Shown here piece after piece: positions 10,895 through 59,466 of a stretch of DNA of 64,000 nucleotides. Position 1 is the stretch's first letter, and each line of letters starts with the position of its first letter. Both the position numbers and the translations under genes were made by a program. Origin of the DNA: Oligoflexales bacterium (lineage in GTDB: Bacteria; Bdellovibrionota_B; Oligoflexia; Oligoflexales; JAPPIL01); the NCBI GenBank assembly GCA_965226195.1, contig OZ245333.1:2087127-2151126 (forward strand), written 5' to 3'. The notes under the pieces were generated by a model. That model worked only from the letters and a program-made list of their open reading frames with translations, searched no databases and had not been told where the DNA came from.

Positions 10895-11031
10895 CGGCTC
10901 GTTGCCGCTTTCTAGCTTCGCACGGTTCTTTGCCGCTTTCCTGCTTCGCACGGCTCGTTGCCGCTTTCCTGCTTCGCACGGTTCTTTGCCGCTTTCCTGC
11001 TTCGCACGGCTCTTTGCCGCTTTCTAGCTCC
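10895..11031. repeat. Tandem array, about 5 x 28 bp, of the CTTTGCCGCTTTC(C/T)(T/A)GCT(T/C)C repeat family
   Basis: Direct reading shows the unit ctttgccgctttcctgcttcgcacgg(c/t)t repeated head-to-tail. The array fills the gap between the GCS2 stop and the GDH start. Confidence 0.9.
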
Positions 11032-13522: not shown

Positions 13523-14153
13523 TTCACACATGTGTGAATGCTCTTTGTCGCTTCCTAGCTCCAGCTAACGCATTCGCGTGAAATGGTTCGCTGTGATGCT
13601 TCCTCCCGCCCCTGTGTAAACTTTTGCGGACAATGCAAACTTGTGTGTAACACGAGCAACTTCTCCATAACATCAATATGATCATTATGAGATTGTCAAT
13701 GCTCGGCACTATGCCTATACCCCAAAGAAAAACCCCGTATTAAAACTCGCGGCTTTAGAGGCAAGTTCAGATGATGGGCAGCACAAATATGCCAACACCT
13801 ATATCCATCTTTGCGGGCGAGGGTTGTTGTGACCCAAGCAGTGTGCCAGAAGGCACGCTGCTAATCCTTATTGCCAAAGGGCACAAGCAAGTGGAAGCTA
13901 GCAAGCAGCAAAAGGATTGCGTAGCACGCCCGGGAGGCCAAATGTTAGGCGCGCAAGGCAGACCTTGGCTAGCACTACGCCTGAGTGTACGAAGCGAGCT
14001 AGAGCGAGAAAGCGGCAAAGAGTTCGCGAAGCGAGCGTTACAAAAAAGCGGCGTAAGCTAGCATTCATCCATTCAGCTGCGTCCAGCAGCTGAAAAAAAA
14101 CAAAACAAGCTAATGATTAGTTTTTTTCTCGCAGGTTACGTATACTGGCGGGC

Positions 14154-16987: not shown

Positions 16988-17467
16988 CTATTCGCAAGCC
17001 TTTTCAGCCGTCACCCACGTGGTGACCTTTTCCTTGGTCAAGCCACCGAGCTGGTCTTTACCGGGATGCTCCTTGTCAGCGAGATCGCCAGTGAGATACG
17101 TCCACAGCTTGTCCGCATCGAGTAAATTTTTCTCCTTGACTTTAGCTAGCATGCCTTCTTTGTTGCTAGCGGCGTTGGTCTCACCTGCCTTCAGCGCAAA
17201 CCCACCCTCGTCAGTCGCACTCGAATGACAGCCAGAGGCATCACAACTGTCTGTCTTGATATGCGGCTGGATGTTGCTGGCAAACGCTGTCGATGCCGCA
17301 GGGCAACCGTCCGTTGTTTCTGTTGGTTCATTCTCGCCATTGCACTGCCACAACATCAATGCCGCGACAATCGCTACGCTAACCCTTTGCCGCTTTTTAG
17401 CTCCGCTAACTCTTTGCTGCTTTCTAGCTTCGCTAACTCTTTGCCGCTTTCTAGCTCCACGCATCAT
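16988..17467 (-). CDS. Putative lipoprotein with a CX4CH (heme-c-like) motif; paralog of 17756-18196
   Basis: Lipobox-like LMLWQC and the motif SCDASGCH, with a shared architecture with the neighbouring gene. The only available N-terminus consists of three 27-nt repeat units (ARKRQRVSE/ARKQQRVSG/AKKRQRVSV). Confidence 0.55.
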   Translation of the reverse strand: MMRGARKRQRVSEARKQQRVSGAKKRQRVSVAIVAALMLWQCNGENEPTETTDGCPAASTAFASNIQPHIKTDSCDASGCHSSATDEGGFALKAGETNAASNKEGMLAKVKEKNLLDADKLWTYLTGDLADKEHPGKDQLGGLTKEKVTTWVTAEKACE

Positions 17468-17496
17468 CTCTCCCTCCTTTAATTGGTAAAAAATAT

Positions 17497-17754
17497 CTCT
17501 TCCTAGCTTCGCTAGACTCTTTGCCGCTTCCTAGCTCCGCTAGACTCTTTGCCGCTTTTTAGCTCCGCTAGACTCTTTGCCGCTTTTTAGCTCCGCTAGA
17601 CTCTTTGCCGCTTTTTAGCTCCGCTAGACTCTTTGCCGCTTTTTAGCTCCGCTAGACTCTTTGCCGCTTTTTAGCTCCGCTAGACTCTTTGCCGCTTTTT
17701 AGCTCCGCTAGACTCTTTGCCGCTTTTTAGCTCCGCTAGACTCTTTGCCGCTTT
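17497..17754. repeat. Pure tandem array, about 9 x 28 bp (unit AGCTCCGCTAGACTCTTTGCCGCTTTTT)
   Basis: Direct reading shows nearly identical units without spacers. They fill essentially the whole intergenic gap between the two CX4CH lipoprotein paralogs. Confidence 0.95.
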
Positions 17755-17755
17755 A

Positions 17756-18196
17756 CTAGCGCCCACTGCTACATTTTTGCTCAGCTGCTAACCATGCCGT
17801 GATGCCCTCCTCGGTGATGTGTCCTGCGGCAACTTGGTTGCCCCCACCATGGGTATCGTCAGTGATCTTGTCAAGCAGCACACCATCTCCCATCAGCCAC
17901 CTGTTGCGGTGAGAAATCATATTAGCCCGATTGCCGGTGGCGGTATCTTCGTTTTCTTTCTTTAGCAGCTCAAGTCCACCACCGGGAGCGTCGGCATCAC
18001 TGCCATGACAGCCTCCGCCGCTACACGATGCATCTATGGCAGTCTGGATATTTAGCTCAAAAGTATAGAGTGCTAGTTGGGGGCACTCTTTTCCTTCGAT
18101 TGGTGGTAGTTCGGGTGTGGGGGACTGTGGGTCGTTGTTCTCGTCGCTGCACTGCCAGATAGAGCACAGCAGCACGATGCACAAGATGCGCGCCAT
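17756..18196 (-). CDS. Putative lipoprotein with a CX4CH (heme-c-like) motif; paralog of 16988-17467
   Basis: Start chosen at MARILCIVLLCSIWQC (lipobox-like). Motif SCSGGGCHG and a conserved C-terminal ...TAWLAAEQKC. Confidence 0.55.
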   Translation of the reverse strand: MARILCIVLLCSIWQCSDENNDPQSPTPELPPIEGKECPQLALYTFELNIQTAIDASCSGGGCHGSDADAPGGGLELLKKENEDTATGNRANMISHRNRWLMGDGVLLDKITDDTHGGGNQVAAGHITEEGITAWLAAEQKCSSGR

Positions 18197-22379: not shown

Positions 22380-22482
22380 TTTTTCCGCGGCTTTTGCTAT
22401 CGTCGCATGTGTGCTATGCTGGAGCTAGAAAGCGGCAAAAAGTCTCCACGAGGCTTGAGTCTGATTGAAACAGAGGAGTGTT

Positions 22483-22962
22483 ATGGATACGGCTGGTTTT
22501 GCTAAAGTAAAGGGCTATCTCAACGAACTGGGATTGGCGATTATCAAGGAGGTTGCCGACGATGACCTGTTTATCGTGCAGGACGAGGACAACGGCATCA
22601 ACAATTTAGTTATCGATGTCGAAGACCCGATTGTTGTTCTCGAACAGTTTATCATGGACGTGCCTAAGCAGGGGCAGGAGTATTTTTATCGTCGCCTGCT
22701 GCAGATGAACCGCGCACTCGTGCACGGTGCATTTGTGCTCGATGGGGAGCTAGAAAGCGGCAAAAAGTTAGCGGCACAGCCGCTAGAAAGCGGCAAAAAT
22801 CTGCGACATGAGCGTAGCGAAGTGGTGGCACAACGTGTTTATTTTCGGGATACCTTGCAGCTGCAAAATCTTGATCTCAACGAACTTGAAGCTTCGATCA
22901 AGGCGTTGTCGCTAGGTTTGGCTGAAGTCAGTAGCGAGCTGATTGAATTTTCCAAAAACTAA
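22483..22962 (+). CDS. YjfI-like (DUF2170-like) protein paired with PspA, carrying two in-frame repeat units
   Basis: The ATG at 22483 is preceded by AGAGGAG, and the gene lies immediately upstream of a PspA-family gene, as in yjfI-yjfJ. The internal LESGKKLAAQP-LESGKNLRHE segment is encoded by repeat units at 22746-22800. The family call is tentative. Confidence 0.5.
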   Translation: MDTAGFAKVKGYLNELGLAIIKEVADDDLFIVQDEDNGINNLVIDVEDPIVVLEQFIMDVPKQGQEYFYRRLLQMNRALVHGAFVLDGELESGKKLAAQPLESGKNLRHERSEVVAQRVYFRDTLQLQNLDLNELEASIKALSLGLAEVSSELIEFSKN

Positions 22963-26556: not shown

Positions 26557-26853
26557 ATGTTGTCAGTAGCTGGGGCACGACGCGGATAGTTCGGCCTGAA
26601 TCTGTTGCTGACAACATATGACGCACATAGTTGCACGGTGAATTCTTTGCCGCTTTCTCGCTCTAACCTTTAAGCATAGCAGCACTGCTGGGTCAAAGCA
26701 AAAAATACGTCTGTACCTCTTGCGTAGCATGCGAAAATCGTTTCTAATTATACACAGAGCTAATTTTTACAATCGGGCTAGTTTGCTGCTGCGTTGACTG
26801 TCTGCTCGTAGCTTGGGGCTAGCTTATATTCGCGGGGAAGGGATATTTTTACC

Positions 26854-44686: not shown

Positions 44687-44729
44687 GCTTCGCTCCGCTC
44701 GCTGGCTTGTTTGCCGCTTTCTTGCTTCA

Positions 44730-50680: not shown

Positions 50681-51066
50681 AACTTCACTCCCCCTTCACG
50701 CACGCCCTCTGCTAGAGCTTTTAGGCGACCGTGATAATTGCAGCCATTGCGATCGAAAACTACCGTCTTCACTTCTTTTGCCAAACACGCAGCAGCTAGT
50801 TTCTGCCCCAGCACTTTGCAGTTTGCGACGTTCGCCCGTGAGGCTGCGCCACGCTTTTTGCCGCTTTCGCGCTCCAAATCATCTTTGCCGAACGAACTCA
50901 CCGCCACCAACGTATGCTGCTTCACATCGTCGATCACCTGTGCATAGATGTGCCGTGCTGAACGAAACACCGACAGACGTGGGCGCTCCGTCGTGCCGCT
51001 GATTTTCTTGCGAATACGCTTCTTACGCCGCAACAGCAGCATTAGCTTAAGTGTCTGCTTCTTCAT
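50677..51066 (-). CDS. rplR: 50S ribosomal protein L18 (uL18) with an apparent internal repeat-unit insertion
   Basis: RPRLSVFRSARHIYAQVID...FDRNGCNYHGRLKALAEGVREGG matches uL18. The internal LERESGKKRG is encoded by the repeat core at 50854-50875. Confidence 0.93.
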   Translation of the reverse strand: MKKQTLKLMLLLRRKKRIRKKISGTTERPRLSVFRSARHIYAQVIDDVKQHTLVAVSSFGKDDLERESGKKRGAASRANVANCKVLGQKLAAACLAKEVKTVVFDRNGCNYHGRLKALAEGVREGGVKF

Positions 51067-51620: not shown

Positions 51621-51631
51621 CTCTGCTCCTT

Positions 51632-51713
51632 ACTCCGCTCGTCGCAGGACTCTTTGCCACTTGCTAGCTCCTCACTCCGCTCGTCGCAGGACTCTTTGCC
51701 ACTTGCTAGCTCC
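51632..51713. repeat. Two tandem 42-bp units of the repeat family in the rpsH-rplF spacer
   Basis: actccgctcgtcgcaggactctttgccacttgctagctcctc is repeated at 51632 and 51674. Confidence 0.9.
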
Positions 51714-52124: not shown

Positions 52125-52310
52125 TTACCACGATGCTTTCTTAACGCCGGGCAACAATCCACTCAACGCCATCAGCCGAAAACAGATGCGGCAAATCAAA
52201 AACTTACGGTAAACCGCCTTCGAGCGCCCACAACGACTACAGCGTGTGTAAGCACGGGAAGAAAACTTAGGTTTACGACTTGCCTTTGCAATCAAAGATT
52301 TACGTGCCAA
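52125..52310 (-). CDS. rpsN: 30S ribosomal protein S14, short zinc-binding type (uS14)
   Basis: A 61-aa ORF with CSRCGR...CRIC, i.e. type-Z S14. Confidence 0.93.
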
Positions 52311-52320
52311 ACGCTGCCCC

Positions 52321-52881
52321 TTAATTCTTTTTGAACGGAAATTTAAACCGATCTAGCAAAGCTTTTGCTGTTATATCGTTTTCAGCAGAAGTGACAATAG
52401 TTATCGACAGACCGCTGATTTTTTCGACTTTATCGTAATCTATTTCAGGAAAAATAATCTGCTCGACAATACCCAGCGAGTAATTTCCTCGCCCATCGAA
52501 CGACTTGGGTGGATAACCACGAAAGTCACGAATACGAGGCACGGCAATGTTAATCAGCCGATAGAGGAACTCATACATCCTGTCATGACGCAAGGTCACC
52601 ATGCAACCAATCGGCATGCCATCACGGATCTTGAAACCAGCAATACTTTTCTTCGCTCGCCGCACGGCTGCCTTCTGCCCGGTAATACGGGCTAATTCCT
52701 GCAACGAGCTGTCGAGTGCCTTGACGTTCTGCGCTGCCTCACCTTTGCCGATGTTGGCAACGATCTTCTGCAAACGCGGCACTTGCATGGCGTTATTCAA
52801 CCCCAACTCTTGCTGCAACTCGCGGCGAAACTGCGTATATGCTTGCTTGAGCGCGGGCACGTGTGCTGCTTGCTTTGCCAT
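52321..52881 (-). CDS. rplE: 50S ribosomal protein L5 (uL5)
   Basis: [20 protein letters not shown]...RDFRG...[11 protein letters not shown] matches uL5. Confidence 0.95.
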
Positions 52882-53250
52882 CTACACTACCTCCGGTGCC
52901 AGCGATGCAATTTTGATAAAGCCGCGGTTGCGAATTTCACGTGCCACAGGGCCGAAAATACGCGTCCCAATTGGCTCGTTGTCCTTGTTGACCAGCACGC
53001 AGGCATTCTCGTCGAACTTAATCGTCGTGCCATCCTTGCGCTGCACTTCTTTCTTGGTGCGCACGACCACTGCCCGCTGCACGCTGCCTTTCTTGGTCTT
53101 GCTGCCCGGCAGCACCTCACGCACCGAGACGATGATAATATCGCCGGGTGCGGCATAACGTCGGTTCGTGCCGCCCGGAATTTTGAAACATTTCAAACGC
53201 CGCGCGCCTGAATTGTCCCCGCTCTGCAGAATGCTTTCCATTTGAATCAT
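52882..53250 (-). CDS. rplN: 50S ribosomal protein L14 (uL14)
   Basis: [24 protein letters not shown]...GPVAREIR matches uL14. Its TAG is immediately followed by the rplE ATG. Confidence 0.95.
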
Positions 53251-53576
53251 CTTGTCGCCACCCTTATGATTTCCAGCAGATTAAAGCTTTTGCGCTTGCT
53301 GCGTGGCCGACAGGGACGCACCAGCACCTCATCACCAAGCTGCGACTTGTTATCCTCATCGTGAAAGAGAATCTTCGTCGTGCGCTTAATATATTTGCGA
53401 TAGATAGGATGCTTGACCAAACGCTCAATCTTCAACGTGCGGGTCTTCGACAACGCCGCACTGATCACTACGCCTTTCAGCGTCTTGATGCGCGCTTTGC
53501 CTGCTTCGCTCGGCTTTTTGCCGCTTTCTGCTTCGCAGGACTCTTTGCCGCTTGCTCGCTCCGCTTCACTCGTCAC
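53247..53576 (-). CDS. rpsQ: 30S ribosomal protein S17 (uS17) with a repeat-derived N-terminal extension of about 25 aa
   Basis: The core [44 protein letters not shown] matches uS17. The N-terminal [26 protein letters not shown] is encoded by repeat units. The only in-frame start I can find is the GTG at 53576, which overlaps the rpmC end. Confidence 0.9.
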
Positions 53577-58882: not shown

Positions 58883-59466
58883 AGCTGCTCGTCGGGCTGG
58901 GTAATCCCACGCCGCACTACGCCTTTACCCGCCACAATGCAGGTTTTATCTGTCTCGACTTGCTGGCGACAGAGTATAGCCTGACGTGGACGGAGAAAAA
59001 AAAACTGCGGGCTTTGGTGGCGCAAGGTGAGGTATTTGGCACAAAGTGTCTTTTGCTGAAACCGCAGACATGGATGAACCATAGCGGTCAAGCGGTGGCC
59101 GCGGCGGTGAATTTTTTCCGCCTCATGCACGACGACGTGGTGGTCTTGTATGATGACCTCGACGTGCCCGCAGGACGAGTGAAGTGCAAGGACGCTGGCA
59201 GTAGCGGTGGACACAACGGCGTGCAGAGTGTCATTGATTGTCTGCACAGCCAAAATTTCCAGCGCATCAAGCTGGGGGTGGCACGTCCGCCAGAAGCGCA
59301 GCATTCGGGGGATGGGAGCGAGAAAGCGGCAAAAAGCAGACCCACGAGCGGAGAGGAGTGGGTGCTGGGAAAATTCAGTGCAGCTGAGCTGGAAGTTTTG
59401 CGCACAGAGATGTATGAACAGGTGCTGCTGCGGTTGCGGCAGATTTTCAGAGAAACGCAGGCTTAA
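58879..59466 (+). CDS. pth: Peptidyl-tRNA hydrolase with an apparent internal repeat-unit insertion
   Basis: KLLVGLGNPTPHYAFTRHNAGF and ...GGHNGVQS match Pth. The segment PPEAQHSGDGSEKAAKSRPTSGEE interrupts the usually short G.G.P....VL loop and contains the repeat core at 59315-59336. Confidence 0.9.
   Translation: MKLLVGLGNPTPHYAFTRHNAGFICLDLLATEYSLTWTEKKKLRALVAQGEVFGTKCLLLKPQTWMNHSGQAVAAAVNFFRLMHDDVVVLYDDLDVPAGRVKCKDAGSSGGHNGVQSVIDCLHSQNFQRIKLGVARPPEAQHSGDGSEKAAKSRPTSGEEWVLGKFSAAELEVLRTEMYEQVLLRLRQIFRETQA

Follow-up and report, generated by a model that had tools for sequence, protein, structure and literature searches.

A 64,000-nt stretch of the genome of an Oligoflexales bacterium (contig OZ245333.1 of assembly GCA_965226195.1, positions 2,087,127 to 2,151,126; hereafter the window, whose own numbering is used throughout) carries on its minus strand two paralogous genes for small secreted or lipoprotein-like proteins. 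The spacer between these genes is filled by a tandem array of 28-nt units, and related units of 27 nt lie in frame at the 5' end of the downstream gene (Table 1).

Two repeat blocks at a pair of paralogous genes

Tandem Repeats Finder (TRF) resolves the spacer array at 17504-17754 into 9.0 copies of a 28-nt unit with 98% matches (score 481), which confirms a preliminary description of this DNA, made from the letters alone, that had placed about nine spacer-less 28-nt units in the intergenic gap. Both TRF and the sequence itself show head-to-tail, contiguous units without anything between them, and three-frame translation shows that TAG or TAA shuts all three frames, as with a period of 28 one of these stops is met in every frame within three units. 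The AT-rich leader that follows the array is, together with the Shine-Dalgarno sequence (SD) and the ATG, common to six related genomes (L074, L075, L076, L081, L082, and L083). At the other end, the last codons and the stop of the upstream paralogue fall within the first unit in several relatives as well as in the window, and in relatives the stop is the CTAG of that unit.

Inside the downstream open reading frame (ORF), matches to the plus-strand core CTCTTTGCCGCTT lie at 17383, 17410, and 17437, each 27 nt from the next. On the gene strand, the coding units occupy 17458-17432, 17431-17405, and 17404-17378 and encode the three peptides of Table 1 in that order, with a first unit that reads GGA GCT AGA AAG CGG CAA AGA GTT AGC. 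The number of units, their period and frame, and the type of peptide are as the preliminary description had them, though the array extends to 17378 and not merely to 17385. A translation start downstream of the repeats, which that description had named as fatal to its proposal, is not what the gene structure suggests: SD and tandem ATG lie upstream, and no in-frame ATG, GTG, or TTG occurs either within the repeats or between them and the hydrophobic core. The only later in-frame starts are codons 37-39, just 3-5 codons before the invariant Cys, and their use would remove the signal peptide found in every homologue. Because the SD and the ATGATG are conserved and no usable in-frame start lies downstream, it is well supported that translation of this gene would begin upstream of the repeats and run through them.

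The repeats had further been described as the only positively charged N-region ahead of a lipobox-like LMLWQC. This does not hold, given that MMR precedes the repeats and that orthologues make do with M-x-R alone. The W-Q-C of the supposed lipobox is invariant in all 16 aligned homologues, but L-W-Q-C after the hydrophobic core is atypical when compared to the canonical [LVI][ASTVI][GAS]C, with its W at -2 and its Q at -1. The alignment of homologues has 21 invariant columns and shows a conserved protein family; both paralogues and all homologues combine the invariant W-Q-C after a hydrophobic leader with an S-C-x4-C-H motif, and there is a weak Pfam match (E = 0.004) to PSCyt1, a cytochrome c domain of planctomycetes. 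Judging from these motifs, the two genes may encode small secreted proteins that bind haem or metal and not lipoproteins of a generic kind.

Table 1. Features of the window that bear on the repeat family, and state of the spacer between the paralogous genes in related genomes
Feature	Position	Strand	Description
Non-coding array, 28 nt x 4.6	10895-11029	-	between GCS2-family gene stop and large GDH gene start; TRF at 10895-11024
Single core	13541-13559	-	core scan
Single core	13897-13915	+	core scan
Single core	14004-14022	+	core scan
Gene for small secreted or lipoprotein-like protein, bears coding repeats	16988-17467	-	invariant WQC, CX4CH motif, weak PSCyt1 match
Three in-frame 27-nt units	17378-17458	-	GARKRQRVS-EARKQQRVS-GAKKRQRVS; 25-aa insertion in predicted signal-peptide n-region
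Start codons ATG ATG of downstream gene	17462-17467	-	5 nt after SD, upstream of coding repeats; aligned orthologue starts
Unique leader between the two repeat blocks	17468-17498	-	AT-rich stretch AGATATTTTTTACCAATTAA and Shine-Dalgarno AGGAGG (17473-17478); kept in all relatives examined
Non-coding tandem array	17499-17754	-	nine 28-nt units GGAGCTAAAAAGCGGCAAAGAGTCTAGC and terminal partial unit GAAGCTAGGAAG (17499-17510); TRF, sequence, three-frame translation
Upstream paralogue gene	17756-18196	-	last codons and TAG stop inside degenerate first repeat unit GGGCGCTAGTAAAGCGGCAAAGAG
Single intergenic core	22424-22442	+	core scan
Two in-frame units 33 nt apart	22749-22800	+	LESGKKLAAQP / LESGKN in CesT_Tir_1-like gene, splitting Pfam domain
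Single core	26643-26661	-	core scan
Single core upstream of true rplQ start	44707-44725	-	core scan
Single core in rplR (L18)	50854-50872	-	part of 33-nt in-frame insertion ..LERESGKKRGAAS..
Non-coding array, 42 nt x 2.1	51625-51713	-	rpsH-rplF spacer; last unit supplies rplF SD TAAGGAGC; TRF
In-frame array, 27 nt x 2.4	53501-53565	-	N-terminal extension of S17, ESGK frame; GTG start and SD upstream
Single core in pth	59318-59336	+	third sense frame, SEKAAKS; stretch longer than in solved Pth proteins
Orthologous spacer, window			28 nt x 9
Orthologous spacer, L074			39 nt x 3.6
Orthologous spacer, L075			18 nt x 6.9
Orthologous spacer, L076 (OY282434.1)			no array; 64 nt with one degenerate unit
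Orthologous spacer, L081			~9 units: 28-nt GTCTAGC type mixed with two 27-nt GTTAGC type
Orthologous spacer, L082			no array
Orthologous spacer, L083			28 nt x 2

Homologues of the downstream gene are found in about 14 related lineages. Those of alignment A1 (P0003-P0014) and the paralogue start with M-x-R-[VI]A..ALxLWQC, and the window protein has 25 additional residues after its MMR. Since the homologues thus begin with M-x-R and the hydrophobic core without any units, the coding units are, on the evidence of this alignment, a recent insertion into the n-region of the predicted signal peptide. Their number differs among close relatives, with one in P0002 (MWGARKRQRFSVAI..), two in P0088, and three in both P0089 and P0090, and at the DNA level they are always 27-nt, stop-free units of the GTTAGC or TTTAGC type. 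The spacer is even more plastic (Table 1): among close genomes, it holds 9, ~9, 2, or 0 units compared to 3, 3, 2, or 1 in the coding block, and copy number thus differs at the same locus among closely related genomes in the way of a minisatellite or variable-number tandem repeat (VNTR). L081 comes from a near-identical strain: its spacer shares a contig with L077, and L077 matches the window at about 99% identity. Other repeats occur near the orthologous locus as well. In L082 (1402-1460), the upstream paralogue has another tandem repeat at its C-terminus, which has a 9/18-nt period and encodes ..KNSKNSENSENSDN, and the spacer of this genome is free of the core array, and in L076 (201-334) we found a pentanucleotide microsatellite, (GCGCA) x 26.8.

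A dispersed repeat family and its copies inside genes

By their shared sequence, the 27- and 28-nt units are members of a dispersed repeat family that is specific to this clade and has a core of ~21 nt, GGAGCTAGAAAGCGGCAAAGAG, and a variable tail. Allowing up to two mismatches, a 13-mer of the core matches the window 33 times compared to 2.64 expected matches, and none of 100 shuffles reached 33; across 384 kb (the window plus 40 loci of OY282434.1), there are 222 core matches compared to about 0.3 in shuffles. Core sites are dense in the window, about one per 4 kb. The contig OY282434.1 is the 2.84-Mb chromosome of an uncultured Oligoflexales bacterium that must be a sister species of the window genome, given that its orthologue of the downstream gene product is only 62% identical, and along this chromosome the core loci are spread over many unlinked sites as expected of an interspersed family. 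All units are purine-rich, asymmetric, and non-palindromic and measure 18-45 nt. Their core is conserved across species with orthologous proteins that are only about 60-80% identical, but the tails and periods differ.

Several arrays of OY282434.1 (L006, L038, L056, L059, L071, and others) sit within larger composite intergenic repeats, the conserved extra modules of which include CTTAGCACAAGTCTCCGTTGTCTTGGCACGG and ..GCACATGCCTTGTGCAAAAAAATAATCTGA.., both absent from the window, and one 36-nt unit recurs at about 10 loci of this chromosome. Among the flanking modules, two are absent from the window and a third is present once, at 14029. With the flanking modules mostly missing from the window, the core alone is the shared element.

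Beyond the clade, only singleton matches turned up in other genomes and in Joint Genome Institute (JGI) metagenomes, save for one locus with two relaxed matches, and BLAST against plasmid and phage collections returned no similar sequence. An Rfam search over the whole window recovered two tRNAs and no known RNA family or CRISPR repeat, and we found no description of the motif or of Oligoflexales repeats in the searchable literature. The family therefore appears as an undescribed short repeat confined, within the searches made, to this clade of Oligoflexales.

The preliminary description had listed further repeats, namely copies with a 27-nt period in rpsQ, a non-coding array with a 28-nt period upstream of the GDH gene, and 42-nt units in the rpsH-rplF spacer that are non-coding despite a length divisible by three. 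All of these were recovered by TRF (Table 1). The 33-nt spacing of two copies in a gene that it had called YjfI-like was likewise found, and Pfam assigns this gene to CesT_Tir_1. In S17, the Pfam domain starts from residue 35 and Escherichia coli S17 aligns from residue 29; the S17 of a relative has 92 aa and no array, and that of the window is 17-25 aa longer. The 33-nt insertion (11 aa) in L18 is absent from 118-aa relatives including that of OY282434.1 (P0020, P0021, L080). Other L18 homologues (P0017, P0018, P0019, and P0023) carry Ser/Ala/Lys-rich inserts of 14-20 aa (..ASEKASDTKSLARRS..) at the same loop in alignment A2, which could reflect either recurrent insertions at a single hotspot or the divergence of an insert of old date.

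OY282434.1 offers additional examples of translated copies. Its NuoN contains an array of ~145 aa that is read antisense (SLPLSSSADS..), with spacings of only 18, 27, 36, and 45 nt, and that lies between the Pfam domain and a last hydrophobic stretch, possibly a transmembrane helix, and a helicase-like protein harbors an in-frame array of 36 nt x 4.4. Taken together, the family is translated in the ARKRQR frame in the lipoprotein-like gene, as ESGK in S17, L18, the CesT-like protein, and L039, as SEKAAKS in Pth, and antisense as SLPLSS in NuoN. The use of three sense frames and one antisense frame identifies the repeated entity, as far as sequence comparison can tell, as DNA and not as a peptide; with other frames in use for this DNA elsewhere, it is not the peptide itself that is conserved.

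Copy number is variable at other loci, too. The rpsH-rplF array counts 2.1, 4.1, and 8.1 copies in three assemblies with flanks of about 99.6% identity, whereas the coding S17 array is constant at 2.4. Public gene calls include ORFs of 63 aa (L077, 3268-3459) and 124 aa (L078, 2895-3269) that lie wholly within the expanded rpsH-rplF array and are probably spurious proteins made by the repeat, illustrating how it inflates and corrupts gene calls. At L012 (6945-7219) of OY282434.1, the gyrB-gyrA spacer is filled by two arrays of the family, 18 nt x 7.9 and 27 nt x 4.6, that are open in the gyrA frame up to its ATG.

Unit length and reading frame

The 28-nt and 27-nt units differ by a single base, GTCTAGC versus GTTAGC (GAGTCTAGC versus GAGT-TAGC), and in the ARKRQR frame the additional base of the 28-nt unit creates GTC TAG and thereby a stop. 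Because the common 27-nt unit of the sister species is GGAGCTAGAAAGCGGCAAAGAGTCAGC, the 28-nt form may be a derived variant that is tolerated only outside ORFs.

From the contrast between 27 and 28 nt, the preliminary description had suggested that the frame is under selection wherever units are translated, and it had called for a genome-wide count of unit lengths modulo three. We made such a count on a sample composed of the window, the 40 OY282434.1 loci, and related spacers. At all five independent coding sites (eight site-by-period classes), the period is a multiple of three, with 27 nt in the lipoprotein-like gene, 27 nt in S17, 33 nt in the CesT-like gene, 18/27/36/45 nt in NuoN, and 36 nt in the helicase-like gene, but the same is true for 17 of 30 non-coding array/period classes. 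Comparing coding to non-coding arrays by Fisher's test gave p = 0.02 by class and p = 0.08 by site. Units of 18 and 39 nt, both multiples of three, make up the orthologous non-coding spacer of two relatives, and 27-nt units of the coding type occur in the non-coding array of L081. The claim thus stands as far as translated arrays are concerned, yet a length of 27 versus 28 nt is not a coding/non-coding signature, and non-coding arrays follow no opposite rule. Even the frame filter on translated arrays, though real, is nearly tautological because an out-of-frame array would not be scored as coding. The contrast between 27 and 28 nt is therefore what frame constraint leads one to expect and teaches little on its own, and we consider the repeat family itself the more noteworthy finding.

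Compared to shuffled sequence, the RNA of the array folds poorly (z = +2.85), pairs of units folded as DNA gave z-scores of -0.8 to +2.9, and no inverted repeats of note were found in the units by folding. A hairpin element of the type of repetitive extragenic palindromic sequences (REPs), Rickettsia palindromic elements (RPEs), or miniature transposable elements with inverted repeats (MITEs) was rejected since the arrays are less structured than shuffles as both RNA and DNA. A CRISPR array was similarly rejected in view of contiguous units without spacers and the lack of any match to an Rfam CRISPR repeat. A promoter and terminator scan of the array found no sigma-70-like promoter or terminator on the gene strand. 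Intergenic copies in the window are co-oriented with the downstream gene, but those at the 40 OY282434.1 loci are random with respect to the orientation of flanking genes (22, 21, 20, and 20 for the four arrangements). On that chromosome, the strand of the motif shows local co-orientation only and no global switch, and a replichore polarity like that of Chi or of FtsK orienting polar sequences (KOPS) was rejected on these grounds. The idea that an intrinsic 9-nt sub-period underlies the spacings of 18, 27, 36, and 45 nt was dropped after lag analysis revealed no consistent 9-nt self-similarity.

Origin of the arrays and comparison with other repeats

We consider it probable that the units at this locus form two blocks of a short interspersed repeat that is lineage-specific and non-palindromic, that these blocks grew like VNTRs, and that the contrast between 27 and 28 nt arose from a filter for in-frame survival. 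Arrays would grow and shrink, probably by slipped-strand mispairing or unequal recombination as in minisatellites, with effects close to neutral. In the spacer, units of any length could be amplified, and this tolerance would explain why different genomes have units of 18 nt, 28 nt, mixed 28/27 nt, or 39 nt there. In the downstream gene, the core would have been inserted just after codon 3, within the n-region of the signal peptide, and then multiplied to 1-3 copies. To persist inside an ORF, a unit would have to be free of stops and of a length divisible by three; the 27-nt GTTAGC unit would qualify, whereas the 28-nt GTCTAGC unit would shift the frame and carry a TAG, and purifying selection would purge such frame-breaking or stop-bearing variants from arrays in ORFs. 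The resulting Lys/Arg-rich extension of the leader is probably tolerated because positive charge is acceptable in an n-region and the leader is probably removed by cleavage. The frame filter could likewise account for the units found in frame in S17, L18, the CesT-like protein, Pth, and NuoN, and such low-complexity insertions into ribosomal proteins, NuoN, and a signal peptide may be seen as experiments of nature that show at which places a protein tolerates foreign peptide.

Several observations weigh against this interpretation. We infer the translation of the repeats from gene structure only, and our census covered a sample of ~0.4 Mb that had been chosen for containing the motif and was annotated by a crude gene caller based on codon usage, with Pfam as a check. 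The non-coding arrays of that census show an excess of multiples of three over the expected one third (p = 0.007) that a pure filter does not predict. This excess vanishes once ten loci sharing one 36-nt unit are collapsed (7/20, p = 0.52), though the collapse was our own choice as analysts. Furthermore, we detected no target-site duplication or clear insertion signature when comparing filled to empty sites, and the conservation of the core across species is hard to square with purely neutral junk and hints at an active process or a function.

One way to accommodate this conservation would be an active, sequence-specific process that keeps or spreads the core, such as a mobilizing or recombination enzyme, biased gene conversion, or an uptake bias, with the arrays and in-frame copies as mere by-products. 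It is compatible with the explanation of the 27/28 contrast by in-frame survival, but we regard it as unlikely. Such a process would fit a core that is maintained across lineages with orthologous proteins of 57-79% identity despite differing tails and periods, the density of sites in the window, and the core-bearing insertions of 21-51 nt in conserved genes at sites that are empty in relatives. However, we found neither an associated gene nor a terminal inverted repeat, a target duplication, or a hairpin, replichore polarity was not seen, tandem arrays are atypical of uptake sequences, and plasmid and phage collections contain nothing similar. We would go no further than to suggest, tentatively, that the core might be the substrate or product of an unrecognized sequence-specific process that holds it constant across species and sets seeds of 21-51 nt even in essential genes such as rpsQ, rplR, pth, and nuoN, from which arrays then expand; the family would then be a new class of very short expanding element distinct from REPs and their associated tyrosine transposases (REP/RAYT), MITEs, and RPEs. 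If the core were indeed actively maintained, this would represent a new mechanism of repeat spread.

Alternatively, the arrays might be regulatory, with unstructured GGAG units that serve as a 5' leader, a ribosome standby site, or a promoter spacer so that copy number tunes or switches a surface protein in the manner of a contingency locus. The GGAG in every unit, the rplF SD that is supplied by the last unit of the rpsH-rplF array, the poor folding of the array RNA, the variable copy number among close strains, and the co-orientation of intergenic copies with downstream genes in the window would all agree with such a role. Yet this co-orientation is lost in the random arrangement at the 40 sister-genome loci, the gene strand of the array has no sigma-70-like promoter or terminator, and relatives with 0, 2, or 9 units have the same conserved leader and SD. 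In addition, the distance from single cores to start codons is not fixed and changes in copy number cannot switch the frame with a period that is a multiple of three in the ORF, which makes a regulatory function quite unlikely in our eyes.

Selection might instead act on the Lys/Arg-rich peptide itself, as an adaptive extension of the n-region that aids targeting or export, with the DNA repeat being secondary. The peptide is strongly basic (11 K/R, 1 E) and placed where signal peptides need positive charge, and the coding units remain stop-free in five genomes. But P0003-P0014 and the paralogue function with M-x-R only, copy number varies from 0 to 3 among close relatives, the peptides from the other frames in S17, L18, Pth, and NuoN are acidic or Ser-rich and unrelated, and the identical unit occurs untranslated next door in the L081 spacer, so that an adaptive peptide seems improbable to us. 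An artefact, either by misassembly of error-prone tandem repeats or through a pseudogene with its real start after the repeats, deserves hardly any credence given the same architecture in independent assemblies from different samples (L074, L075, L081, L082, and L083), the conserved protein family with its 21 invariant columns, and the lack of a usable downstream start.

As a lineage-specific interspersed repeat, the family invites comparison with well-known bacterial elements. RPEs are dispersed, lineage-specific repeats that occur both between genes and in frame within genes, including housekeeping genes, where the encoded peptide is tolerated but not functional (Ogata et al. 2000, reviewed in PMC3184786). 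The repeats described here resemble them in forming in-frame insertions in conserved genes that are absent from orthologues, as seen for S17, L18, the lipoprotein-like gene (25 aa), and NuoN (~145 aa). But RPEs are palindromic, about 105-146 bp long, and usually single, whereas this family has a core of ~21 nt and non-palindromic, tandem units of variable length (18-45 nt). Mycobacterial interspersed repetitive units (MIRU-VNTR) are tandem units in operon spacers, with ends overlapping stop and start signals, that are polymorphic among strains (Supply et al. 1997, reviewed in PMC3184786). Similarly, the stop of the upstream paralogue lies in the first unit of the array in our window, the rplF SD comes from the last unit of another, and the gyrB-gyrA spacer contains arrays at L012. 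MIRUs differ in that they measure 40-100 bp, occupy about 40-50 loci, contain imperfect inverted repeats, show tetranucleotide direct repeats where sites are filled, and are not reported from essential coding sequences, whereas units are shorter here, vary in length between lineages at one locus, and are translated in several frames. The family thus shares the behavior of RPEs and MIRUs but differs from both in size and palindromy and is a member of neither.

Other parallels are more limited. The opa genes of Neisseria, which encode phase-variable surface proteins, have a CTCTT pentamer in the part that encodes the signal peptide, and a change of copy number by 5 nt shifts the frame and thereby switches the gene on or off. 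Both systems combine tandem repeats in signal-peptide-coding DNA with strain-variable copy number, but the 27-nt unit studied here only lengthens the leader. A phase-variable contingency locus is disfavored by the observation that this unit keeps the frame in all variants and that no promoter was found to span the array. DNA uptake sequences (DUS) or uptake signal sequences (USS) are short, conserved, dense motifs that are shared by related species and tolerated in coding frames, yet they are not known to expand into long tandem arrays. The core recalls these motifs by its density and its conservation across species, but the family described here forms tandem arrays. With CRISPRs it has in common direct repeats of ~28 nt in a non-coding stretch, but it lacks spacers and a repeat palindrome and is dispersed, including copies within ORFs. 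In practical terms, the hypervariable arrays could serve as markers for typing strains of uncultured Oligoflexales, whether host-associated or environmental.

Two minor observations concern the ribosomal protein genes of the window. First, rplN (L14) is directly followed by rplE (L5), with the junction at 52881-52882, and no rplX (L24) lies between them in the window or in the gene calls of L077 (1733-2662), so L24 may be encoded elsewhere or missing. Second, the gap between rplE and rpsH contains a gene for a 61-aa Zn-ribbon S14 (rpsN/Z) with a TTG start at 52125-52310 on the minus strand that is uncalled in the L077 annotation.

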